DNA of 64,000 nucleotides. Source: Candidatus Latescibacterota bacterium. Lineage in GTDB: Bacteria > Latescibacterota > UBA2968 > UBA8231. Location: positions 896,001-960,000 of the forward strand of contig CBDCSU010000004.1 in the NCBI GenBank assembly GCA_965221775.1, given 5' to 3'. The translations under genes and the position numbers were made by a program. This document shows, piece after piece, positions 2-12,899 of the stretch; position 1 is the first letter of the stretch, and every line of letters begins with the position of its first letter. The notes beneath the pieces are model-generated. The model searched no databases. It was not told the DNA's origin and was given only the letters and a program-made list of their open reading frames with translations.

Positions 2-943
<942 letters not shown>

Positions 944-1073: not shown

Positions 1074-1910
1074 CTACCCCGGATCCGGGTCCCCGGGCGG
1101 CGCCAGCCAGCCGTCGGCCTCGCCTTCCTCCTCCGACTCGAAGTCCACCCCCGGCCCGGCCTCGCGCCCGCGGTCGCAGTAGGACCGGTACGGACAGTAT
1201 CGGCAGACGCCGATGTCCCCGGTCCGGGGGAATCCCTCCTCCCCCTTCTCCAGCCGCTCCTCGATCTCCGCCGCCGCCGCCTCGATCCGCTGCCGCGCCT
1301 GCTCGTGCTGCCCGGCGTCGTAGTGCAGCACCACCGGCTCCTCGGGCAGAGCGCTCTGCCAGTAGACGAAGCGGACCCCCTCCGCGGCCACCGGCCCCGG
1401 CGCCAGGGAGCCGGCCCCCTCGAGGGCGACGAAGCGGTACACGGCCGTCTGCCAGCTGCGCTCGAGGTGCTCCCGGCTCGACGGGGCCCCGGTCTTCCAG
1501 TCGACGATGTCGAGGCGCACGCCGCCGGAACCGCCGCTGACCTCTAGGCGGTCGAAGCGAGCCACCAGGGACTGGCCGCCTGTCAGCACCACCTCCAGCT
1601 CCAGCTCCGTGTGGACGCGGAGGCTGGGCCCCCCGGGCGGCGGCGGCGGGTGCCGCCGGAAACGCTGCCACCAGGCGGTCAGCTCCTCGTCGCCTGAGGC
1701 GTGGGCGATCTCGTCGGCGGGCAGGCCGAGGGCGTCCTGCTGCACGAGGAGGTGGAACCGCTCCCCGCGGCGGCGGGAACGCTCCCACTCCTGCTCGGAG
1801 CCGGTGAGCGGCGCCGGCCACTCGAGGCGGCGCACGAAGCGCAGGTAGAACCGGCGCGGGCAGCGCTCGAAGGTGGAGAGGGCGCTCTGGCTCAGGGGCG
1901 GCGGGTTCAT
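1074..1910 (-). CDS. Stand-alone PD-(D/E)xK nuclease, RecB/AddB/Cas4-like, with 4-Cys (iron-staple) signature, 278 aa
   Basis: Starts MNPPPLSQSALSTFERCPRRFYL; RFDRL, IVDWKTG and WQTAVY nuclease motifs; C-terminal CRYCPYRSYC; ATG overlaps the helicase stop (ATGA, 1907-1910). Confidence 0.88.
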   Translation of the reverse strand: MNPPPLSQSALSTFERCPRRFYLRFVRRLEWPAPLTGSEQEWERSRRRGERFHLLVQQDALGLPADEIAHASGDEELTAWWQRFRRHPPPPPGGPSLRVHTELELEVVLTGGQSLVARFDRLEVSGGSGGVRLDIVDWKTGAPSSREHLERSWQTAVYRFVALEGAGSLAPGPVAAEGVRFVYWQSALPEEPVVLHYDAGQHEQARQRIEAAAAEIEERLEKGEEGFPRTGDIGVCRYCPYRSYCDRGREAGPGVDFESEEEGEADGWLAPPGDPDPG

Positions 1911-4138
1911 GCGGGGTCTCCCCGCTGCTTGTCGAGGAGCGCCCCCAGGCGCGCGAAGAGGAGGGACTCCGGCGCCGCGCGGGTGCGCTGGCCGCTGGGG
2001 ATGGTGCGGCTGTAGCTGACCGACAGGAAGCGCCGCGCCCGGGTGATGGCGACGTAGAGCAGGCGCAGCCGCTCGCAGATGTACTCCAGCTGGCCGGTGG
2101 GCGCCACGGAGGGCCTCGGGCCGGCCTCCAGGAGCGCCGTCAGGCGGGCCCTCGCCATCTCCGCCGGGTTGCCCCCGAGGTGGGGCTCGTGGCCGCGGAA
2201 GTAGTCCTCCGGGGTGCCGGGGAACTCGATGCCGTCGACGCCCACGAGGTAGACGAGGTCCCACTCCATGCCCTTGGCCTTGTGCATCGTCGTCAGGGTG
2301 AGCTGTCCGGGCCGGGGCTCGTACGCCGCCTCCTCCTCGCCCGCCAGGATCTCGCGCGCCGCCTCGGGCCGCTGCAGATCGGCGGCCAGCTCGGGGAGGC
2401 GCCAGCCGGGGTGCTGGTCGGCCCGCCGGCGCAGGTGCCCGGCCACGCGCTGCGCCCGCGCCAGGTCGTCGCCCTCGAAGAGCTCGGCGGCCACGGCCAG
2501 GGCCAGCTGGTCCACGGGGAAGCGCCCCGCCTCCAGCCAGCGGCGGGCCCGGCGGGCCAGCGCGCCGAGGGGCTGCAGGTCCCCCTGCAGGCGCGCCACC
2601 GGCGGGAAGGCGTCGGCCACCTCCACCCCCGGCGCCGGGTAGAGGAGGCTCTCCGGGCGGTAGCAGCTGCGCACCAGGGGCCGGAGGTCCTCGGCCTCCT
2701 CGCCCGCGGTGATGCGGAAGACCCCCTCGAGGGCGGCCGGCGAGAGCGGGCCGGCGACGAAGGTGAGGACCCGGGCGAGGCTCTCGATCACCGCCCGCGA
2801 GCGGCGCGTGGTGGTGAGGCGCTCGTCGAAGGAGACGCCCATCTCGCGCAGGACCTCGGCCATCTCGAAGCCGAGCCGGTTGGTGGGCACGAGGACGGCG
2901 AGGGTGCCGTCCGGCCGCGACCGGGTGAAGCCGAGGGCCCGCCGGGCCACGTACTCCAGCTCCTCGGCGCGGTCCTCGAAGGGGCGCAGGGCGATGGCGC
3001 TGTCGCCGTCGTCCGGGTTCGGCTGCGGGTCCCCGGCCCCGGACGGGTCCATGCGCTGGCGGCGGAAGGCCTCGCTGCGCACCTCGAGGACCGGGTATTC
3101 CTCGCAGGTCCAGGCCACCAGGCCGTTGGCCAGCTCCATGATCCTCGGCGAGCAGCGGCCCGAGACCGCCATCTCCACGGTGCGCACCTCCCGGCGCTCG
3201 AGGAAACGGCGCAGGAACCGGGGATCGGCGGAGGTGAAGGTGCTGGTGATCGACTGGTTCGGGTCGCCCACGCGGATCCAGTGGCCGGAGCGCGCGGTCA
3301 GCCTCCCGAGGAGCTCCTCCTGGAGGGGGACGCTGTCCTGGGCCTCGTCCTCGAGCACCACGGGCCAGCGCCCGGCGAGGCGCTCGGCCACGTCCTCGTG
3401 GGAGGCGAGGAGGTCGACGGCGAGGCGCACCATGTCGTTGAAGTCGATGCCGCCCCAGCTCTCGACGAGGAGCTGGTAGCGGGAGTACAGCTCGGCGCCG
3501 ATGCGCAGGAGCCGCAGGGGCAGGTCGTCGCCCTCCTCGCCGCGGTCCCCGGCGCCGGCGAGCCGCCCGAGGAGCGCGTCGGCGTCGAGGCGGTGGTTCT
3601 TGGCGGCGGCGATCACCGTGCGCCCCAGGTCGAGGCCGATGCGCGCCCATCTCTCCTCCCAGCCCGCGTCGGGCCGCCCCTCTCCGGGGGCCAGGGGCTC
3701 CCAGCGGTGGCGGTTCTCCACGCTCCACTCGCGCAGGGCGCGGTCGACGAGCTCCACCTGGGAGCGCTCGTCCAGAACCCGCAGGTCGGAGTCGGTGCCG
3801 GCGTGGCCCGGCCAGGTCTGGACGATGCCGAAGGCGAGGCTGTGGAGGGTGCGCACCTCGTACCCCGCGGGGACCAGCCGGCGGCTGGCGAGGGCCCGGG
3901 CGATGCGTCCCCGCAGGGCGTCGGCGGCGGCGGCCTGGTAGGTGACCACCAGCACCCGGCCGGTCTCGGGCAGGGGTCCCGCGCCCCGTCCCCGGCGCTC
4001 CAGCAGCTCCGCGGCGAGATGGGCGATGGTGGTGGTCTTGCCGCTGCCGGGGACCGCCGCCACCCCCATGAGGCCGCCCTCGTACTCGAGGATCTGCTTC
4101 TGGCCCTCCCGGGGGCGGAAGACTTCGGGGGCGTTCAC
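1907..4138 (-). CDS. UvrD/Rep/PcrA-family (SF1A) ATP-dependent DNA helicase, 743 aa
   Basis: Walker A AVPGSGKTTT, TLHSLA, Walker B VLEDEAQDS, VGDPNQSI, TMHKAKGMEWDLVYL, ERLRLLYVAITRARRFL. Confidence 0.92.
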   Translation of the reverse strand: MNAPEVFRPREGQKQILEYEGGLMGVAAVPGSGKTTTIAHLAAELLERRGRGAGPLPETGRVLVVTYQAAAADALRGRIARALASRRLVPAGYEVRTLHSLAFGIVQTWPGHAGTDSDLRVLDERSQVELVDRALREWSVENRHRWEPLAPGEGRPDAGWEERWARIGLDLGRTVIAAAKNHRLDADALLGRLAGAGDRGEEGDDLPLRLLRIGAELYSRYQLLVESWGGIDFNDMVRLAVDLLASHEDVAERLAGRWPVVLEDEAQDSVPLQEELLGRLTARSGHWIRVGDPNQSITSTFTSADPRFLRRFLERREVRTVEMAVSGRCSPRIMELANGLVAWTCEEYPVLEVRSEAFRRQRMDPSGAGDPQPNPDDGDSAIALRPFEDRAEELEYVARRALGFTRSRPDGTLAVLVPTNRLGFEMAEVLREMGVSFDERLTTTRRSRAVIESLARVLTFVAGPLSPAALEGVFRITAGEEAEDLRPLVRSCYRPESLLYPAPGVEVADAFPPVARLQGDLQPLGALARRARRWLEAGRFPVDQLALAVAAELFEGDDLARAQRVAGHLRRRADQHPGWRLPELAADLQRPEAAREILAGEEEAAYEPRPGQLTLTTMHKAKGMEWDLVYLVGVDGIEFPGTPEDYFRGHEPHLGGNPAEMARARLTALLEAGPRPSVAPTGQLEYICERLRLLYVAITRARRFLSVSYSRTIPSGQRTRAAPESLLFARLGALLDKQRGDPA

Positions 4139-6242
4139 GCCGCCGGCTCCACCGGTCCGGCGATCCTCGCCGCCGCCCGCAGCAGGGGACTATCCTCCTC
4201 GGGGGGCCCGCCGGCCTCGGTCTCGCTCCAGCACAGGTACACGGCGTCGCCGGCGCGGCTGCACAACCCCCGCACCAGGCGGCCGAGGGTGCGGTTGCGG
4301 GTCTCGTGGTCGACGGCCTCGGTCCAGCGGGCGTCCCGGGACCAGCGGCGGGACAGGACGTGGGGGTTGGTCAGCGGCTGGTGCGGCGGCTCCCACCAGC
4401 TGATCGATCCGGCGTCGAGCCAGAACTGGCAGCGGTCGAAGCGCTCCTCCAGCAGGTAGGTGTAGACCGGCGCCACCACGAGGACGGCGTCGGCCGGCGG
4501 CGGCGCCCCCGGCGGGTGGGAGGCGGCCACCACCCCTCCTCCACCATGCGCGCGTAGCCCTCGGCCGTGCCCCCGGGGTCGGGGCCGGCGCCGAGGGAGG
4601 GGGCCGAGCGCCGGAACCAGGAGGCCGAGGAGATCAGGCGCGCGTACATCGCCGCCCGCCCCGGGTCGAGATCGGGCCGCGACAGGACCTCTCCGAAGAG
4701 CTGCCGGAGGAAGAGATCGAGAGGCTGAGGCTCGCCCTGCCGGCGCGCCTGCAGCCAGCGGCGCAGGGTCTCGAACGCTTCCAGGGCCCCCGGCGGCAGC
4801 CGCTCCCGTAGCCGCGGGTCCCCCTCCCCCAGGTCGCGCAGGGCGCCGGAGCCGGCGTCGTACGCCGCCCGCGTCAGCAGCTTGGCGCGCACCGGGTCCA
4901 GGCTCATCGCCGCCTGCAGCGCCTCGGCGACGTCGCTGGCGTGGGGGGCCGGCTCCCAGCCCGGGTAGGCCAGCGCCGCCAGGGCCAGGGCGGCGCGCGT
5001 CTCGGGCTCCTCGCGCAGGCTCTCGAAGCGGCGGACCACGGCGCAGGGGATCCCGGCCTCACGGAGGGCCTCGCTCACCAGGAACCGCAGGACGCCGTCG
5101 GCGTGGGGGGCGACGACGGCGATCTCCCCCGGTTCGGCGGCGCCCGCTTCCACGAGGCGCACGACTTCGGCGGCGACTGCGCCCACCATCTGGCCGCGGT
5201 GGCGCGCCGAGAGCAGACGCAGGGCCCCGGCGGCGGCTTGGTCGGGGGTCTCGCCGGGGGCCCGGGGCGGCTCGAAGCCGGCGGACAGCTCCCGCCCGAG
5301 GGTGACTGTCGGCCGCACCGGCTCGTCGGGGACCCGCAGGCGCCGGCCGCAGGCCTCCCGCAGGGACCAGGCGCCCTCGGGATCGACCCCGAGGAAGACG
5401 CGGAACCCCCCGTCCCGGCGGGCCACCAGCCAGGCGGAGTCGACCGCCTCCAGGCGCCGGCGGATGAAGTCCTGGGCCAGCGGCACCGTCTCCTCCACCG
5501 CCTCCACCAGCAGGTGCCGGAAGCGCCCCTCGAGGTAGCGGCGGAACTCGTCGGAGGGCAGCAGCTGCCGGCGGAAGAGATGGAGGACGAGGGAGACGTC
5601 GACCAGGTTGTGCTCCAGGCAGTGGGCGCGGTAGGCCTCGATGCAGTCCTGGGCCTGGTCGAACCAGACCTCCCGGCCCTCCTTGTGGGCCGTCCACGAG
5701 TCCCGCAGCCGGGGGCCGACCTCGGCGATGTCGTAGCCGTTGACGCCGGCCTTGTTGAGGTTGTCGAGCAGCTGCGAGAGCAGTCTCTGGGGCCGCAGCG
5801 ACAGGCCGTCGAAGGCGCCCTCGGCGAGGCGGGGGTCGACGATCTGCTTCATCACGTACTGGGCGGTCTCGTAGGTGAGCAGGACCGGCGGGTCGAGGGG
5901 CGATCGGAAGCCGGCCTCGAGGGCGATCCGCGGCCAGAACAGGCGCACCATGCGCGCCGCCAGGCCGTAGAAGGTGTGGATCTCGGGGGAGACCGCCGCC
6001 CGTCCGGAGACCGGTCCGCCGGGGGGCTCGGGGCGCCGGCGGGGGCGCTGCGGCACCAGGACCAGCAGCTCGTCGCCGCTCACCCCCTGATCGAGGAGCG
6101 CGGCCATCCGCTCGCGGACCAGGGCGCCGGCGGCGGCCGGCCCCTGGGGCAGATCGATCCACACCGAGCCGGCCGCCGGAGCGGCGATGGCCGCGGCCAC
6201 CTCCCCGGTCCAGGAGCCCGCCGGCGTCCCCGGCGCCGTCAC
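4135..6242 (-). CDS. Degenerate, probably ATPase-dead UvrD-like helicase partner (about 702 aa if repaired), interrupted by an apparent 1-bp deletion at about 4533-4536
   Basis: Two consecutive ORFs (4371..6257 and 4135..4533) join as ...RMVEEG-VVAASH... if one G is added to a G4 run; remnant SF1 motifs (LLVLVP, IHTFYGLA, LLVEAVEET, EIAVVAP, RGLCSRAGDAVYLCWS) but no Walker A lysine; GTGA overlaps at both ends. Confidence 0.7.
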
Positions 6243-8113
6243 CGCGCCCGGGCCCATTCCCGGGCTCTCGCCTTCAGCGCCTCCGCCTCACGAGCCCGGC
6301 CCATCCGCGACAGGACCTGCGCCGCCAGCCGGTACGGTCCGGTGCGCACGGGGTCGATCTCCAGGGCTCGAAGGGCATACCTGAGGGACTCTTCCAACTC
6401 GTTCATACGAAACAACATGAGACTCACGTTGTAATTCATCGACTGAGATCCCGGGGCGGCCTCGGCGGCGCGCCGGTAAGCCGCCTCGGCCATCTCTCGC
6501 TCCGCCGCCGCCCGGTGGCGTTCCCCCGACATGAACCAGCCGTTGGCCACCAGCTTGCGCACCCACGGGTCCGGCGAGTCGAGGAGGGCGGGATCCGCCC
6601 CTTCCAGCCAGACCGCGGGATCGGCGGAGGTGTCCGGGCCGCTGCCGCCGCGGCCGCGGACGGCGAGATAGCTCAGGCCCCGGGGCTCGAACCGGAACCC
6701 CTCGGGCGGGCGCCGCGCCACCAGGAAGTGCACGGGCCTTTCGGAGTTCATCCAGGCCCGCTCCCGGCGCCGGCGCCGCGGCGCCCCCTCCCGGCCGCCG
6801 GCGGCGGTGGGATCGCCGCGGCCGAGGCGGTTGGCGATGGTCACGTCCGGGCGCACGCCCTCCACCCGCTGCAGGTAGTCCACCAGGAAGCTGGCGTCGT
6901 CCCCCTCGGTGACCAGCACCGCCCGGGGAGGCAGCTCCTCGAGCAGCCGGCGCCCGTAGAGGTCCGGGAACCAGGCGCCGCTGCGGTCGGCCTCCCCGAG
7001 GTTGGCGGCGAGGGGGACGGCGGCGCAGGCGAGGGCCGCCGCCGGCGCCAGGTTGCGGAGCCGGCCCCGCAGCCGCCGCACCAGGTCGTCGAGGCCGAAG
7101 CCGGCCAGGGCGGCGGCGCACAGCACCGCCAGCAGGAAGAACACGTCCAGCCCCTGGGGGTTGCGGTGGTAGCCCAGGGCGGTGACCAGGTTGAGAACCG
7201 CCGCCGCCAGCAGCACCCGCGCCAGGACCGGGTCGCGGCGCCAGGCCGCCACCGCCCCCCAGGCGAGGAGGGGCAGGAACAGGGGCGTCCACTCCCCCGC
7301 CAGCTGCTCCCCCAGGCGCCGGGCGTTGATCGCCGCGGCCCCCCAGGGCAGGCTGAAGAAGGAGCCGCGGTAGGTGGCGCCGGTGAGGTGCTCCCACAGC
7401 GCCGGCAGCGAGTCCAGGGGGCCCCAGTGGAAACCGGCGCCGAGGCCGTTGCGCACCGGCAGGTAGATCCACGCGCTCACCCCGGCCAGCCCGCCGGGGA
7501 CCAACCAGGCCGCCTCGCGCAGCCGCTCCCGCGGGCCCCGCCGCACGGAGGCATGGTCGGCCCCCAGGGCGGCGAGCAGCACCGGCGGCACCAGCAGCAC
7601 CGCCTGCAGGTGACAGGTGGCGGCGAGGCCGGCGGCGTAGCCGGTCAGCAGCAGCCAGCGGGGGCGGTCGGCGGGAGGGCGGGACCGCGCCCTGAGCCCG
7701 GCGCCGAGGAGGACCACCGCGGCCAGGACGAAGAGGCCGTAGACCTCGGCGATCACCGCCTGGCTCCAGTAGGTCCGGCTCCAGGCCAGGGCCAGCCCCG
7801 CCGCCGCGGCCGCCGCCCAGCCGCAGCCGCGCGCCTGCAGGAGGAGGGCCAGGGAGCCGGCGGCGGCCGCCGCCAGCAGGCAGGTGGCGGCGTTCACCGC
7901 CCGCGCCGGCGAGGCCCCCGGATCGAGCCAGGAGAGCACCTTCGCCAGGAGCACGTACAGGGGATACCCGGTCGGGTGCGGCGTCCCCAGGCCCCAGACG
8001 GCGCCGATCAGTTCCCCCGAGCCCTCGACGTAGACCGAGGGGCAGAGGGTCAGCAGGTAGCTGATGGCGGCGAGGCCGAAGACGGCGGCGGCGGCCAGGC
8101 GGGTCCGGTCCAC
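6239..8113 (-). CDS. DUF2723 / TMEM260-like GT-C membrane glycosyltransferase with C-terminal TPR
   Basis: LLTLCPSVYVEGSGELIGAVWGLGTPHPTGYPLY, WSQAVIAEVYGL, multiple TM helices, EGDDASF..DYLQRVEGVRPDV, TPR-like tail (AEAAYRRAAEAAP...RALEIDP). Confidence 0.85.
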   Translation of the reverse strand: MDRTRLAAAAVFGLAAISYLLTLCPSVYVEGSGELIGAVWGLGTPHPTGYPLYVLLAKVLSWLDPGASPARAVNAATCLLAAAAAGSLALLLQARGCGWAAAAAAGLALAWSRTYWSQAVIAEVYGLFVLAAVVLLGAGLRARSRPPADRPRWLLLTGYAAGLAATCHLQAVLLVPPVLLAALGADHASVRRGPRERLREAAWLVPGGLAGVSAWIYLPVRNGLGAGFHWGPLDSLPALWEHLTGATYRGSFFSLPWGAAAINARRLGEQLAGEWTPLFLPLLAWGAVAAWRRDPVLARVLLAAAVLNLVTALGYHRNPQGLDVFFLLAVLCAAALAGFGLDDLVRRLRGRLRNLAPAAALACAAVPLAANLGEADRSGAWFPDLYGRRLLEELPPRAVLVTEGDDASFLVDYLQRVEGVRPDVTIANRLGRGDPTAAGGREGAPRRRRRERAWMNSERPVHFLVARRPPEGFRFEPRGLSYLAVRGRGGSGPDTSADPAVWLEGADPALLDSPDPWVRKLVANGWFMSGERHRAAAEREMAEAAYRRAAEAAPGSQSMNYNVSLMLFRMNELEESLRYALRALEIDPVRTGPYRLAAQVLSRMGRAREAEALKARAREWARAR

Positions 8114-8115
8114 GG

Positions 8116-10617
8116 CTACCCGGCCAGCACCGCCAGCAGCCGCATGCGCTCCAGGCACTGCGCCCACAGGGCCGTCTCCCGGGCGAGGCCGTAGAGCACG
8201 ACGACGGCCGCCACCTGCACGGCCGCGTGCACCGGCGGCATGGCGCCCCGGACCTCCAGCCCCTCCGCCGGCGGCGGCCAGCGCCAGCGCCGAGCCCGCC
8301 ACAGGGCGGCTATCCAGAGGAGGGCGGCCCCGGCGGAGATACCCGTCCCCCACGCCAGCGAGGCCGGCCGGTAGCGGAAGGAGACAAGGCGGTCCGCGGC
8401 CGTCACCGGCACCGCCCGGAAGGCGTGGTTCGCCTTCAGGATCTCCCGCTGCTGCCCGTCGACCCGCGCCTCCCACCCCGGCGCGTAGCTGTCCGCCAGC
8501 ACCAGGAACCCGTCCCGCCCGGGCAGCTCCACGTCGACCGCCGTCGACTCGTAGCGGGTGATGCGGGCCGGAGCGTACCCGGCTCCCGGACCCGGGGTTG
8601 TCCCCGGAGGCCGGTCGAGGAGGACCTGCCGCCCCGCATCGAACCCGGGGGAGCGCAGCCGCGCCAGGCGCCGGCGGGGGTCGGGCTCGACCACGGCCTC
8701 GGCCGCGACCCAGGCCCTGGGCAGGGCCGCCCGGTTGCGGTAGACCCGCTCCTGCCCCGCGTGCAGCAACTCCAGATCCGGCCACGACAGGGCCCGGTGG
8801 CTGACCACGTACCCGGCGTTGGCCAGGTCCAGCCGGGCGGGATAGGCCCTGACCAGCTCCCAGTGTCGGCGCGGGTGCAGGGGGCTCCACCCCGGCAGGG
8901 TGTTGGCCAGGCCGAAGAGACCCGCCGAGTACATGCGCAGGGTCCCGGGGTAGCGCTCGTACGAGGAGAGGTCGTGGACCCAGCCGCCGTGCCAGTCGTA
9001 GGGCGAGTTGCGCTCCGCCACGAGGCTCGCCACGCGCACCAGCCCCGGCACCGGTACCCCCGGAGCGGCCCCGGGACGCCAGCGGCCGGCGTCGGCCAGG
9101 ATCGCCGCCGCCGCCGGCGGAACGCGCTCGTAGACCTCCGGCGGCAGGACCCCGTTGAAGGGCCGTCCGAAGTCGTGCAGCTCCACCAGGCAGAGGGCGG
9201 CCATGGCCCCGGCCAGGGCCCGCGGGCCGAGGCGGCGCCGGACCGGTCCGCAGGTGAGCACGGCCATGGCGAGCAGGACCGGGCCCAGGCGCCACAGGTC
9301 GGCGGCCAGGTCGGCGCGGTAGCGCTCGACCAGCAGCTCCCTGCCCGGGGGGAGGGCCGCCTCGCCCCAGAGGACGGAGCGGTTGACCAGGGCCGCGAGC
9401 CCGGCGGCGAGGGCGAGGAGGACGCAGACCCGCACCCAGGAGGTCCGCAACGGCCGGCCGGCGGCGAGGCGGTGGACCCCGAGGCCGGCGAGGACGGCAC
9501 CGCCGAAGGCCCACCACAGCAGGAAGCGGGTGGGGATGCGCAACTGCCGCAGGAAGGGGACCTCGTGAAGGGCGTGGAACAGCCCCGAGTAGTGGCCCAG
9601 GGAGAGGACCAGGCCGAGGACGGCGAGGAGGGCGAAGAAGCCCCGTGCCGGGGACTCCGCCTCGCGCGCGCCGATCAGCGCCAGCACCACAGCGGCGGCG
9701 CCGATGTAGGGGCAGAGCTGGATGAAGAAGCCCGCCTCCCGGCCCCAGTAGGACCCCGTCGCCGAGTTGCCGAAGAAGTCCGGGAGCAGCAGGCAGATCA
9801 GACGCTCCGGGGGCAGGGACATGTTGACGAACTGCTCGTACCCGAGGCCGCCGCCGCGGCCGGACTCGGCGGCCAGCTCCCACGTCGGCAGCAGCTGCAC
9901 CGCCGCCATCGCCGCCCCGGGCACGGCCAGCAGCGCCGCCCAGGCCGCCTGCCGGCGCCCCAGCTGCCAGGCGCGCAGCGCCCCGTAGGCGGCGGCCGCC
10001 GCGGCGCCGTAGAGGGCCGCCTGCGGGTGGCCGGCCAGCAGCTGCAGGGCCGCCGCGCCCCCGGCCAGGACGACGCGCACCGGCCGCCCGCGGGCCAGAC
10101 CGGTCTCCAGGAGCCAGAACAGCACCGGCAGCAGGGCCGCGGCGGCGACGAAGTTCGGCGACATGGCGCGCACCACGAGGTAGCCGCCGAGGCCGTAGGT
10201 CAGCCCCCCGGTGAGCGCCGCCAGGCGGCCGCAGCCGAGGGCGCGCAGGAAGCCCCAGGTGGCGGCGGCGGCGAGCCACAGGTGGCCGAGGACCGACCAG
10301 GTCACGGCCGCCGCCGGCGGCAGCGGGGCCAGCAGCCAGTTGGGCGGGTACAGGGCCCCCACCTGGCCCTCGGCGAAGAGCGGGAACCCGCAGCTGACGG
10401 CCGGCTCCCACAGCGGCAGCCGGCCTTCGGCGAGGGCCTCGTGCAGGAAGTGGCGCCAGGGGACGTTCTGCACCATCACGTCCTGCACGAAGAACACGCC
10501 GCCCTGCAGGACGCCGGGGAAGAGGCAGGCCACGGCCAGGGCGAGACCCGCCAGGCAGGCGGGGCCGGCGAGCCGGTCAGCGGGGATGGGAAGGGTCCGA
10601 GAGGCCATGTGGCGCAT
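8116..10617 (-). CDS. YfhO-family GT-C polytopic membrane protein
   Basis: N-terminal D..VQNVPWRHF...GRLPLWEP...GFPLFAE..GALYPPN, LAGHPQ, QLLPTWEL, LRIPTRF; C-terminal LVLADSYAPGWEARVDG...ANHAFRAVPV...FRYRP typical of YfhO; start may be 10608. Confidence 0.82.
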   Translation of the reverse strand: MRHMASRTLPIPADRLAGPACLAGLALAVACLFPGVLQGGVFFVQDVMVQNVPWRHFLHEALAEGRLPLWEPAVSCGFPLFAEGQVGALYPPNWLLAPLPPAAAVTWSVLGHLWLAAAATWGFLRALGCGRLAALTGGLTYGLGGYLVVRAMSPNFVAAAALLPVLFWLLETGLARGRPVRVVLAGGAAALQLLAGHPQAALYGAAAAAAYGALRAWQLGRRQAAWAALLAVPGAAMAAVQLLPTWELAAESGRGGGLGYEQFVNMSLPPERLICLLLPDFFGNSATGSYWGREAGFFIQLCPYIGAAAVVLALIGAREAESPARGFFALLAVLGLVLSLGHYSGLFHALHEVPFLRQLRIPTRFLLWWAFGGAVLAGLGVHRLAAGRPLRTSWVRVCVLLALAAGLAALVNRSVLWGEAALPPGRELLVERYRADLAADLWRLGPVLLAMAVLTCGPVRRRLGPRALAGAMAALCLVELHDFGRPFNGVLPPEVYERVPPAAAAILADAGRWRPGAAPGVPVPGLVRVASLVAERNSPYDWHGGWVHDLSSYERYPGTLRMYSAGLFGLANTLPGWSPLHPRRHWELVRAYPARLDLANAGYVVSHRALSWPDLELLHAGQERVYRNRAALPRAWVAAEAVVEPDPRRRLARLRSPGFDAGRQVLLDRPPGTTPGPGAGYAPARITRYESTAVDVELPGRDGFLVLADSYAPGWEARVDGQQREILKANHAFRAVPVTAADRLVSFRYRPASLAWGTGISAGAALLWIAALWRARRWRWPPPAEGLEVRGAMPPVHAAVQVAAVVVLYGLARETALWAQCLERMRLLAVLAG

Positions 10618-10767: not shown

Positions 10768-11910
10768 ATGGAGAGAATCCTGGTCACCGGAGGCGCCGGC
10801 TTCATCGGCTCCCACACCGTCGACCTGCTCCTCGAGCGCGGCTACGAGGTCCGCGTCTTCGACGCCCTGCAGGAACGCGTCCATCCCAAGGGCTGGCCGG
10901 ACTACCTGCCGGCCGAGGTCGACCGGGTCCGCGGCGACGTGCGCGACGCCGGCGCTCTCCGGCGGGCCCTGGAGGGCGTCGACGGCGTCATCCACCTGGC
11001 GGCCTACCAGGACTACATGCCCGACTTCAGCACCTACTTCGCCGTCAACACGGTGGGCACGGCGCTGCTCTTCGAGATCGCCGTCTCCCGGCGCCTGCCG
11101 CTGCGCAAGGTCGTGCTGGCCTCCTCCCAGGCCGTGTACGGGGAGGGGAGCTACCGCTGCGCCCGGTGCGGGACGGTCCACCCCCCGGCCCGGTCGCGGG
11201 ACCAGCTTTCCCGGGGCGACTGGGAGGTCCGCTGCCCCTCCTGCGGCGGCCCCGCCGAGCCCCTGACCCTGACCGAGGACCTGCCCCTCCACCCGCACAC
11301 GGCGTACGGCATCTCCAAGTACTCCCTGGAGATGGCGGCCCTGAACCTGGGCCGGCGCTACGGCATCCCGGTGACCAACATGCGCTACTCCATCGTCCAG
11401 GGGCCGCGCAACTCCTTCTACAACGCCTACAGCGGCGTCGCCCGGATCTTCACCCTGCAGCTGCTCCACGACCAGGCCCCGGTGATCTATGAGGACGGCC
11501 GCCAGCGGCGGGACTACGTCCACGTGGAGGACGTGGCCCGCGCCAACCTGCTCGCCCTCGAGGACGACCGCACCGACTTCACCAACCTGAACGTCCCCGG
11601 CCGGGGGGCCACCACCGTGGTCGAGGTGGCGCGGATGCTGTCCGCCATCTGCGGCAAGGAGGGCCTCGAGCCCGAGATCACCGGCGAGTACCGCCTGGGC
11701 GACGCCCGCCACACGGTCTCCTCGGGGGAGCGCATCGGCGGCCTCGGGTGGCGCCCGGGAGCCGCGCCCGAGGAGTTCCTGCGCGATTACGTGGAATGGG
11801 TGCGCGAACAGCCGGACTTGGGCGAGTTCTACGCGCGCAGCCGCAGGAACATGCGCGCCGCCGGCGTCATCAACCGGTCCTCGCCCCCCGGGGCGGAGCA
11901 GGCGGCGTGA
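10768..11910 (+). CDS. NAD-dependent nucleotide-sugar epimerase/dehydratase (extended SDR) with CxxC..CxxC insert
   Basis: ILVTGGAGFIGSH, HLAA, ASSQAVYGEG, YGISK, YEDGRQRRDYVHVEDVARAN. Confidence 0.9.
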   Translation: MERILVTGGAGFIGSHTVDLLLERGYEVRVFDALQERVHPKGWPDYLPAEVDRVRGDVRDAGALRRALEGVDGVIHLAAYQDYMPDFSTYFAVNTVGTALLFEIAVSRRLPLRKVVLASSQAVYGEGSYRCARCGTVHPPARSRDQLSRGDWEVRCPSCGGPAEPLTLTEDLPLHPHTAYGISKYSLEMAALNLGRRYGIPVTNMRYSIVQGPRNSFYNAYSGVARIFTLQLLHDQAPVIYEDGRQRRDYVHVEDVARANLLALEDDRTDFTNLNVPGRGATTVVEVARMLSAICGKEGLEPEITGEYRLGDARHTVSSGERIGGLGWRPGAAPEEFLRDYVEWVREQPDLGEFYARSRRNMRAAGVINRSSPPGAEQAA

Positions 11911-12899
11911 TCACCACGCGGGCGCCCCTGAGGATCCCCCTCGGCGGGGGCGGCACCGACCTGCCCTCCTACGCCGGCCGCCACGGCGGCTTCATCCTCT
12001 CCGCCGCCATCGACAAGTACGTATACATCCAGCTCAACGCCCTCCAGGTGGAGGACTTCGTGCGCGTCAAGTACTCCCGCACCGAGCGCGTCGACGATGT
12101 CGCCGACCTGGAGCACCCGCTGCTGCGCGAGTCCCTCCTGCACCTCGGCATCGACGGCGGCCTCGAGATCGGCGCCATGGCCGACGTGCCGGGGCGCACC
12201 GGCCTGGGCTCCTCCGGGGCGTTCACCGTGGCCCTCCTGGCGGCCCTGCGCCAGTTCGCGGGGCGGCCGCTGCCGCGGGCCCACCTGGCCGACGAGGCCC
12301 ACCACGTGGAGACGGCGCGCGCCGGCCAGCCGGCGGGCAAGCACGACCACTACCTGGCCGCCTTCGGGGGCCTCACCTGCCTCGACATCGGCACCGGGGG
12401 CCGCGTGTCGGTGAGCGGCCCCCGCGTCTCCGGCCAGACCCTGGGCCAGCTTCGGGACCGCCTCGTCCTGCTCTACACCGGCATCCAGCGCGAGAGCTTC
12501 GACATCCTCTCCCAGCAGGAGGAGGAGACGCGCGCCGGCAAGGCCTCCGTCGTCGACGGCCTGCACGAGATCAAGGCCCTCGGCCTGCGCATCCGCGACG
12601 CCCTGGAGGTCGGCGACCTCGACCGCTTCGGCGAGCTGCTGCACACCCACTGGGAGACCAAGAAGAGGCGCTCGACGAAGATGTCGAACCCCGAGATCGA
12701 CCGCTGGTACGACGAGGCGAGGCGCGCCGGCGCCCTCGGGGGCAAGCTGATGGGGGCCGGCGGCGGCGGCTTCCTGATGTTCTATACTCCCCCCGGGGCC
12801 CGCGAGGCCCTGCGGCGGCGGATGCGGGAGGAGGGCCTGCGCGAGATGGGCTTCCGCTTCGACACCGAAGGCGCCAAGGTGCTGACCAACACCGGGTGA
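11907..12899 (+). CDS. hddA: GHMP kinase, D-glycero-alpha-D-manno-heptose-7-phosphate kinase (HddA-like)
   Basis: RAPLRIPLGGGGTDLPSY, SAAIDKYVY, ADVPGRTGLGSSGAF, GKHDHY, GGKLMGAGGGGF. Confidence 0.8.
   Translation: MITTRAPLRIPLGGGGTDLPSYAGRHGGFILSAAIDKYVYIQLNALQVEDFVRVKYSRTERVDDVADLEHPLLRESLLHLGIDGGLEIGAMADVPGRTGLGSSGAFTVALLAALRQFAGRPLPRAHLADEAHHVETARAGQPAGKHDHYLAAFGGLTCLDIGTGGRVSVSGPRVSGQTLGQLRDRLVLLYTGIQRESFDILSQQEEETRAGKASVVDGLHEIKALGLRIRDALEVGDLDRFGELLHTHWETKKRRSTKMSNPEIDRWYDEARRAGALGGKLMGAGGGGFLMFYTPPGAREALRRRMREEGLREMGFRFDTEGAKVLTNTG

Follow-up and report, generated by a model that had tools for sequence, protein, structure and literature searches.

A stretch of 64,000 nucleotides from a Candidatus Latescibacterota bacterium (contig CBDCSU010000004.1, positions 896,001 to 960,000; the whole of it is called the window below) contains an operon of three overlapping genes, here designated g1, g2 and g3. 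These appear to encode a UvrD-like, motor-like protein, a second UvrD-like protein of the active superfamily 1A (SF1A) helicase type, and a small stand-alone PD-(D/E)XK nuclease. The best supported reading is that the three products are subunits of one AddAB/AdnAB-like helicase-nuclease that processes DNA ends (or forks), built from three polypeptides with a single nuclease, and we hold this to be on balance probable. A repair role away from double-strand ends and a role in defence are weaker explanations, and the view that the operon is a pseudogene was rejected. The set is conserved in at least 568 species genomes and 627 protein clusters (50% identity), and its largest subunit is still named “hypothetical protein” in every record with a name that was seen, including one from a Bacillota metagenome-assembled genome (MAG), and has no Pfam family of its own.

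The g2 product matched the Pfam families UvrD-helicase (PF00580, 2e-34) and UvrD_C (2e-15), with no nuclease domain, and the motifs GSGKT, DEAQD, GDPNQ, SGR, TxHxAKGxExD and VxxTR were invariant in 33 of 33 orthologues. This bears out the initial annotation, which was made from the DNA letters and had described a 743-residue helicase with intact motifs and no C-terminal nuclease. The structural model of g2 (predicted local distance difference test (pLDDT) value of 89.9) gave VIA Z scores of 38 to UvrD, 28.0 to AdnB (638 residues aligned, root-mean-square deviation (rmsd) of 4.1) and 27.7 to AddA. Its scores lay far below the equivalog cut-offs for uvrD, pcrA and rep (90–110 bits versus 911–1144), far under that for recB, and at 58.7 and 50.4 bits on the AddA models TIGR02785 and TIGR02784, which have cut-offs of 707.65 and 860.75, respectively. 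A canonical UvrD of the same genome was located at C4:889026, 7 kb before the window (UvrD-helicase match of 2.3e-96). To judge by its motifs, g2 is an active-type SF1A UvrD-like helicase, and by these cut-offs it would not be an orthologue of uvrD, pcrA or rep.

The Pfam UvrD-helicase match of g1 was weak and below threshold (18.3 bits, cut-off 23). A model built from 33 homologues, with the relative P0001 (707 residues, 92% identical) as the first row, was confident, with a pLDDT of 86.3 and a predicted template modeling score of 0.87. It matched UvrD in Foldseek at 9.5e-19 and gave VIA Z scores of 26–27 to UvrD, Rep and PcrA that spanned residues 12–707, followed by 22.8 to AdnB (617 residues aligned, rmsd of 4.4), 20.3 to AddA, 20.0 to RecB and 19.5 to AddB. 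As modeled, g1 has a complete four-domain (1A/1B/2A/2B) SF1A UvrD-like fold, in keeping with the SF1 fold first ascribed to the large partner. Alignment of g1 with g2 by hhalign (97.6% probability, E of 3e-12, 17% identity) identifies the two as remote paralogues.

At the Walker A position, the window's g1 reads DLPQGPAAAG and its nearest relatives read LPQGPxAxG, whereas GxxGxGK[ST] was kept in 58 of 76 assessable orthologues, most of those from Chloroflexota among them; 17 were without it (15 of these not labeled Chloroflexota), and one had a variant. The initial annotation of this partner as degenerate and lacking Walker A is therefore right for the window's clade but does not extend to the family as a whole. 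Because the motif has been lost in the window's clade, ATP binding by g1 would be dispensable, as it is for RecC, and the living lineages of the family may display the route by which a paralogue that binds ATP gives rise to an inactive, helicase-like subunit of the RecC kind. Strongly conserved motifs of the family include LSQLLDNLNKAA, GG(F/Y)RVFLG and QFWLDxGSxxWWExxxQPLT.

The third protein matched PDDEXK_1 (PF12705) over its whole length (1e-31; 111.2 bits, cut-off 22), and residues C17, R19, H53, E102, D120, D137, W138, K139, Q154, Y158, C236, C239 and C245 were invariant in 28 of 28 orthologues. These residues make up a full PD-(D/E)XK/QxxxY active site combined with the C...CxxCx5C arrangement of AddB/AdnA/Cas4-type iron-sulfur (Fe-S) nucleases, and the earlier description of g3 as a 278-residue nuclease with 1+3 cysteines stands. 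By the curated model TIGR00372, g3 is not Cas4 (25.8 bits, cut-off 65). A sequence search of solved structures with the single g3 sequence returned no match; a g3 profile gave weak matches to a cyanobacterial PD-(D/E)XK protein (4e-4), the AdnB nuclease (1e-3) and AdnA (0.1–0.2). Two candidate fusions of g3, P0121 (848 residues) and P0122 (504 residues), were discarded as Rosetta-stone evidence because their sequence passes from the g2 frame through an alternative frame into g3, which marks them as frameshift artefacts in related assemblies.

Structure prediction for g1 together with g3 gave a complex score of 0.82 (0.80–0.83 over three runs), and the best of three controls scored 0.00. Of 157 solved complexes, 116 reached this mark, as did 2 of 215 mismatched pairs. 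The runs shared at least 69% of their contacts, and pLDDT was at least 83 for the partner. Complex formation, which had been proposed at the outset for the trio, is thus confidently predicted for g1 with g3. The interface on g3 involves residues 27–34, 51–72, 100–116, 243–250 (the Cys loop) and 266–272, and includes the motif W31-P32-A33, in which P32 is invariant and W31 and A33 are nearly so. On g1 it involves residues 55–129 and 511–547, including the conserved LFGEVLS helix. The prediction supports, short of demonstrating, docking of g3 on g1 in the manner of the nuclease domain in AddB and AdnA. In Chloroflexota, the C terminus of g3 bears a conserved acidic peptide (approximately D-F-E-Q-I-A-E-I-E-F) that is not conserved in the window's clade (window 1074 to ∼1150). 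It could be a docking motif; the window's own tail residues 266–272 touch g1 in the predicted complex.

Comparison with known machines places the trio close to, and outside, each of them. Like AddAB of the Bacillus subtilis type (3u44, 4cej), it would pair an active SF1A motor with an SF1-like non-motor partner, to which its Fe-S PD-(D/E)XK nuclease with C...CxxCx5C would likewise be attached. Structural alignments of g1 and g2 to AddB, AddA and AdnB extend over ∼590–660 residues. Unlike in AddAB, the nuclease is a separate 278-residue protein and not a C-terminal domain, g1 ends at 707 residues without one, and the motor g2 has no nuclease of its own, leaving one nuclease where AddAB has two. 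Scores on the NCBIfam AddA and AddB models were far below their cut-offs, and true AddAB genes are present in the same genome. RecBCD resembles the trio in having a motor, a helicase-like subunit without ATPase motifs (RecC, to which the window's g1 compares) and a single active nuclease. It differs in that the genome of the window, at 96.8% completeness, gave no match to the RecC family (Exonuc_V_gamma, PF04257). The RecBCD nuclease is fused to the motor RecB and is not known to contain an Fe-S cluster.

AdnAB of mycobacteria (6ppj, 9np6) likewise has two paralogous UvrD-like subunits, of which one drives translocation. According to the account in PMC13000450, this motor is AdnB, which moves along the 3′ strand, and the non-driving, motor-like AdnA bears the Fe-S nuclease module responsible for cleavage of the 5′ strand at the fork. 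The g1 proteins of Chloroflexota resemble AdnA in keeping the ATP-binding motifs, whereas that of the window's clade has lost Walker A. AdnB gave the highest Z score among the helicase-nucleases for both g1 (22.8) and g2 (28.0), at an rmsd of ∼4 Å, with AddA within 1 Z unit for g2. In contrast to AdnAB, neither g1 nor g2 has a fused C-terminal nuclease, and a second, 3′-strand nuclease is absent. Because the defining fusions are lacking and the scores fall short of the curated cut-offs, the trio is regarded as AddAB/AdnAB-type but a member of neither family.

These comparisons can be summarized in the following minimal model. Here, g2 would act as the ATP-driven 3′-to-5′ SF1A motor that powers unwinding, the counterpart of AddA, AdnB or RecB minus the nuclease domain. 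The paralogous, motor-like g1 would serve as scaffold and conduit, in the place of AddB, AdnA or RecC, and g3 would be an Fe-S PD-(D/E)XK nuclease docked non-covalently on g1 where AddB and AdnA have a fusion. By analogy with AddB and AdnA, g3 on g1 may nick the displaced 5′ strand; as the set contains no 3′-strand nuclease, it is proposed that a 3′ tail would remain available to RecA, with no control by Chi. RecJ would digest the released 5′ strand at those loci that also encode it. In this scheme we infer the g1-g2 pairing, the strand polarity, the end-resection substrate and the role in recombinational repair, the first of these from the adjacency of the two genes in 50 of 64 loci and their translational coupling. 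A comparable logic, in which a helicase unwinds and a 5′-strand nuclease, with or without RecJ, leaves a 3′ tail, is shared by RecQ-RecJ, Sgs1/BLM-Dna2 and the bacterial Dna2-like protein Bad (PMC7430649), and the 5′-strand nuclease of Dna2 and Bad has an Fe-S cluster. This likeness is functional only: RecQ belongs to superfamily 2 and Dna2 and Bad to superfamily 1B, and, unlike in the trio, the Dna2 and Bad nuclease is fused.

If the model is correct, the trio would be a natural “exploded” AddAB/AdnAB in which the motor, scaffold and nuclease roles are genetically separable. In the usual teaching, recombinational repair in bacteria begins with RecBCD, AddAB, AdnAB or RecQ/RecJ. We put forward more tentatively, as a possibility somewhat short of probable, that the trio represents a fourth architecture, after RecBCD, AddAB and AdnAB, among the bacterial enzymes that resect double-strand breaks: one of three polypeptides with a single, detachable nuclease (for the 5′ strand only), Chi-independent, often sharing an operon with RecJ and the main resection enzyme in the many Anaerolineae that show no AddAB-type gene. 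As part of the same proposal, the scaffold g1 would pass from a state like that of AdnA, in which the ATP site is retained (Chloroflexota, Rhodothermota), to one like that of RecC, in which the site has been lost (the window's clade).

Full-text searches found no description of the three-gene set, with many subscription papers lying outside their reach. Related operons, in which genes for a UvrD-like helicase and a pfam12705 Cas4-like nuclease are unfused neighbors, have been reported from outside defence contexts, “mostly Clostridiales”, with a repair function suggested (Hudaiberdiev et al. 2017, PMC5704561). Unlike the trio, these operons are presented there with no mention, in the passages that concern them, of a third SF1-like partner or of a link to recJ. 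The same source places a monophyletic group of solo-Cas4 in many Chloroflexi. The relatives of g1 include a protein from a Bacillota MAG.

In a collection of one genome per species, relatives of g1 were found at no fewer than 568 places, most of them labeled Chloroflexota/Anaerolineae and the others Gemmatimonadota or Latescibacterota. When 1.84 billion cluster representatives (50% identity) were searched with a profile, 1058 matches had E ≤ 1e-10, and 627 of these had E ≤ 1e-30. Lengths among the best 150 of the 627 representatives were 340–815 residues, from which it follows that none of these 150 is as long as a nuclease fusion; no relative of fused length was seen among the best 120 or the best 150 matches. 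The Atlas yielded leads only, namely clusters of UvrD-like proteins in Bacillota and one labeled “recombinase family” in Cyanobacteriota.

The best 80 loci were analyzed for gene order, and 16 with less than 3.3 kb downstream of g1 were left out, giving 64 assessable loci. All three genes were present in 31 of these (contiguous in 25, with gaps in 6), and g1 was accompanied by g2 in 50: besides the complete loci, 5 had the two adjacent and 14 had them separated by a gap, in both cases with no g3 seen (3 of the 14 with too little flank after g2). In the other 14 loci g1 stood alone. The order and strand of the three genes were constant, and the synteny expected from the single locus was thereby found elsewhere, with the genes syntenic or co-occurring in Chloroflexota, Latescibacterota, Gemmatimonadota, Rhodothermota and a Bacillota MAG. 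Each of the five “g1 alone” genomes checked encoded a full-length g2 orthologue elsewhere, and in one genome (G168) a PDDEXK_1 gene lay directly 3′ of an unlinked g2, ∼190 kb from g1. Two further candidate components were rejected: the genes in g1-g2 gaps were unrelated housekeeping genes, and those upstream of g1 in Chloroflexota were likewise unrelated to one another (hydrolase, methyltransferase, kinase and others).

Co-occurrence was also apparent genome-wide. The sample comprised 81 genomes of the Anaerolineae-like class of genome G170, with at least 90% completeness requested and counts tallied by hand. In it g1 was present in 46. Of these, 40 had a stand-alone full-length PDDEXK_1 gene (E ≤ 1e-17), and a contig end truncated that of one more; among the 35 genomes lacking g1, one had such a gene and another had a partial copy. 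Within the window's phylum, g1 was detected in 68 of 168 genomes, distributed as 65 of 75 in the window's family, 2 of 3 in one other family and 0 of 89 in the twelve remaining ones; all nine other genomes of the window's genus had it. In the window's family, g1 behaves as a chromosomal, near-core gene.

A link to recJ, which encodes a 5′-to-3′ single-stranded DNA exonuclease, was also observed. Pfam scans of eight Chloroflexota loci showed in every one a gene with DHH, DHHA1 and RecJ_OB domains after g3 and in the same orientation. By tblastn, recJ lay 3′ of g3, again co-oriented with it, at 12 of 80 loci, or 12 of the 31 with all three genes, and this arrangement occurred in 11 of 17 complete loci labeled Chloroflexota versus 1 of 14 others (L005). 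In the window's genome, recJ is unlinked to the trio (C6:99305). The plasmid pSR56 of Salinibacter ruber M8 (Rhodothermota) carries the annotated order hypothetical protein, ATP-dependent helicase, PD-(D/E)XK nuclease and recJ (L086, NC_014028.1, 6779–14662). The hypothetical protein, in the place of g1, has 717 residues and the sequence GPVGTGKT; the helicase (772 residues) is 33% identical to g2, and the nuclease (294 residues) is 34% identical to g3. As the cassette is found on this 56.5-kb plasmid, typed as non-mobilizable, in a cultured halophile, it evidently moves between phyla. Of the arguments from context for a function in recombinational DNA processing, the strongest is that recJ shares an operon with the trio in three phyla, and S. 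ruber M8 with pSR56, as a cultured carrier, makes the hypothesis directly testable.

The relationship of the trio to AddAB is less straightforward. The window's genome gave 8 PDDEXK_1 and 6 UvrD-helicase matches and carries two pairs of AddB-like and AddA-like genes on contig C6. A query with a single AddB protein at first hinted at partial complementarity with the trio (f4 30 of 31, genus g13 1 of 31), but a PF12705 scan of single-contig genomes of the related genus g13 overturned this, revealing an AddB/AddA-type pair besides the trio in 4 of 4. AddB-type genes, taken to be frames that contain a full PDDEXK_1 domain and either have at least 900 residues or are cut by a contig end, were counted in 25 of the 81 class genomes. 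The split was 19 of 46 with g1 against 6 of 35 without it, and the trio and AddB-type genes therefore show no avoidance. An anti-correlation with recBCD, addAB or adnAB, which the initial annotation had named as a check, thus fails. In the remaining 27 of the 46 genomes with g1 no AddB-type gene was seen, an absence that is provisional in MAGs, and in G170 g3 was the sole PDDEXK_1 match. The trio may, on this ground, be the only SF1/PD-(D/E)XK machine in those 27 genomes; were it an end-resection enzyme, it would account for the start of recombination in these Anaerolineae.

Several observations weigh against assignment of the trio to a split end-processing machine. Its coexistence with canonical AddAB in the window's genome and many others implies that it is redundant or does something else. 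The fold of g1 is no closer to AddB (Z of 19.5) than to plain UvrD (Z of 27). In the g1-g3 prediction P0001 replaced the broken g1 of the window, the alignments were made by the authors, and the score obtained may partly reflect the model's memory of solved AddB/AdnA domain packing. Moreover, because g2 and g3 remain adjacent where g1 is unlinked, g3 could belong to g2, as in a split RecB or AddA. Finally, the sole plasmid copy, on pSR56, sits among genes for a recombinase, a SocA-type antitoxin and XRE proteins.

An alternative reading is a repair module with a substrate other than double-strand ends. Here, g2 and g3 would be a UvrD-type helicase and a flap or gap nuclease that act where DNA is nicked, a fork has stalled or an excision tract has formed. 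The paralogue g1 would serve in regulation or targeting, and the whole would be distinct from and complementary to AddAB. Coexistence with AddAB in the window's genome, in the four related-genus genomes and in 19 of the 46 g1-bearing genomes of the class is in favor of this, as are the structural proximity of g2 to UvrD, Rep and PcrA (Z of 38 versus 28 for AdnB) and the persistence of g2-g3 adjacency without g1. RecJ, moreover, also acts on gaps in the RecFOR pathway. The presence of two SF1 subunits and an Fe-S nuclease is, in contrast, a hallmark of end-processing machines such as AddAB and AdnAB, as the latter is portrayed in PMC13000450. The co-occurrence of g1 and g3 genome-wide and their predicted binding also speak against this reading, as do the 27 of 46 class genomes in which the trio may be the sole such machine. 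We consider this explanation rather unlikely, if the more serious of the alternatives.

Less likely still, and in our estimation improbable, is that the trio is an anti-phage or anti-plasmid helicase-nuclease that degrades invading linear DNA, like RecBCD or the Gabija-like UvrD systems. In PADLOC, g2 matched models of the UvrD-type GajB (1e-38) and g3 matched Cas4 models (3e-7). UvrD-Cas4 fusions have been tied to defence contexts (in the account of PMC5704561), one plasmid copy lies beside a recombinase and an antitoxin, and a reverse transcriptase or DNA methylase occurs near a few loci. The GajB and Cas4 matches are, however, generic domain matches. In Gabija, an OLD-family nuclease, GajA, accompanies the UvrD-like GajB; in the trio, g1 matched nothing in PADLOC, and neither g1 nor g3 matched a Gabija model (other neighbors were not scanned against PADLOC). 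The near-core status of g1 in the window's family (65 of 75) and its fixed housekeeping neighborhood speak against a role in defence, and at other loci the neighbors are gyrA, secY, metabolic genes and recJ. Only 1 of 72,556 plasmid records and none of 50,697 phage records contained a match.

The remaining explanation concerns the integrity of g1. In the window as assembled, g1 is split into two open reading frames (ORFs) in different frames, 4371..6257 (628 residues, the last ∼50 out of frame) and 4135..4533 (132 residues). The protein of roughly 700 residues reported in the initial annotation corresponds to the intact gene of relatives, but the frame in the window is broken and had been read across silently. 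Homologues of 696–711 residues, including P0001, P0003, P0004 and P0064, are uninterrupted across the site, where they read ...YARMVEEGVVAA(S/A)H..., and the window has GAGGAGGGGTGGTGG. Six genomes of the same genus have a single intact full-length g1 match. Logan contigs of the runs X15 and X16 differed from window positions 4000–5000 by one extra C behind plus position 4532, with no substitution in 1001 bases. The two runs stem from a single sample, which is almost identical to the window and may be its source, and the correction rests on that sample since runs X1 and X2 did not reach the site. Because the read contigs carry the missing base and close relatives are intact, the break is a homopolymer consensus error, and g1 is an intact gene of 707 codons. 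That the operon is dead in this genome, as the two ORFs might suggest, was rejected as very improbable, given the base supplied by X15 and X16, the position of the break in a homopolymer in a 6-contig assembly that splits another long gene, the integrity of g2 and g3, and the clear purifying selection on g1 in relatives. That other gene is AddB-like (L084 4934–7848, contig C6) and is divided into overlapping ORFs of 581 and 478 residues. The assembly seems to carry homopolymer indel errors, and other broken genes in it are to be read accordingly.

The features of the locus are collected in Table 1. The stop codon of g1 and the start codon of g2 overlap as GTGA (4138–4135) and those of g2 and g3 as ATGA (1910–1907), confirming on the minus strand the coupling first noted. 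For g1, the ATG at 6257, which is also used in P0001, is a more likely start than the GTG at 6242; with either choice g1 overlaps the stop codon of the upstream gene (6241–6239). The G+C content of the region is ∼75%, so long spurious ORFs are frequent; for this reason the open frame of g3 runs to 884 codons by extending back across g2 (window 1074–3728, minus strand), and automatic annotation may report false helicase-nuclease “fusions” from it.

Table 1. Features of the g1-g2-g3 locus in the window
Feature	Position	Strand or orientation	Description
g1	6257..4135 (ATG start)	minus	predicted UvrD-like SF1A motor-like subunit, 707 aa with frameshift read through
g2	4138..1907	minus	predicted SF1A (UvrD-type) helicase, 743 aa, all motor motifs, no nuclease domain
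g3	1910..1074	minus	predicted stand-alone PD-(D/E)XK nuclease, 278 aa, Fe-S “iron staple” Cys pattern
Frameshift in g1	4532..4536	minus	4 G at 4536–4533 where 5 are required; one base short
TMEM260-like/PMT_2-type glycosyltransferase with C-terminal TPR repeats	6239 to ∼8100	minus	stop overlaps g1 start
YfhO-like membrane protein	8116–10617	minus	upstream of operon
NAD-dependent epimerase	∼10770–11910	plus	upstream of operon
GHMP kinase	11748–12899	plus	upstream of operon
Radical-SAM/TRAM (MiaB-like) gene, C-terminal part	59..943	convergent to operon	downstream of g3

The genes upstream of the operon form a cell-envelope cluster. No mobility or defence genes were seen among the genes called around the trio, and no cas genes among those called from ∼1 to 12.9 kb, where CRISPR arrays were not searched for. 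The setting near miaB was therefore rightly described as housekeeping, and it is neither mobile nor defence-like. The same neighborhood recurs at five other loci (L004, L005, L014, L017 and L018), with the TMEM260-like glycosyltransferase, sometimes PTS-EIIA, and the trio, some with the convergent MiaB-like gene. The glycosyltransferase-trio adjacency is kept in the first four, with PTS-EIIA lying between in L005, L014 and L017 and not in the window. PMT_2 genes were also found 3′ of g2 in L029 and L053.

Isolated neighbors of g1 elsewhere included a second PDDEXK_1 gene directly upstream, in L066 only (5932–6954, plus strand; 6.9e-16), a reverse transcriptase (RVT_1) upstream in L030 (5565–6626) and L060 (5567–6637; both plus strand) and a DinG-like helicase upstream in L027 (4815–6989, plus strand). 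A DNA methylase with an inactive restriction-endonuclease-like domain was found downstream in L046 (9932–11614, plus strand). Positions 4000–5000 of the window were contained in 20 public runs, among them 12 sponge metagenomes from three studies and two marine metagenomes from one study, and from these run labels the organism appears to be sponge-associated.

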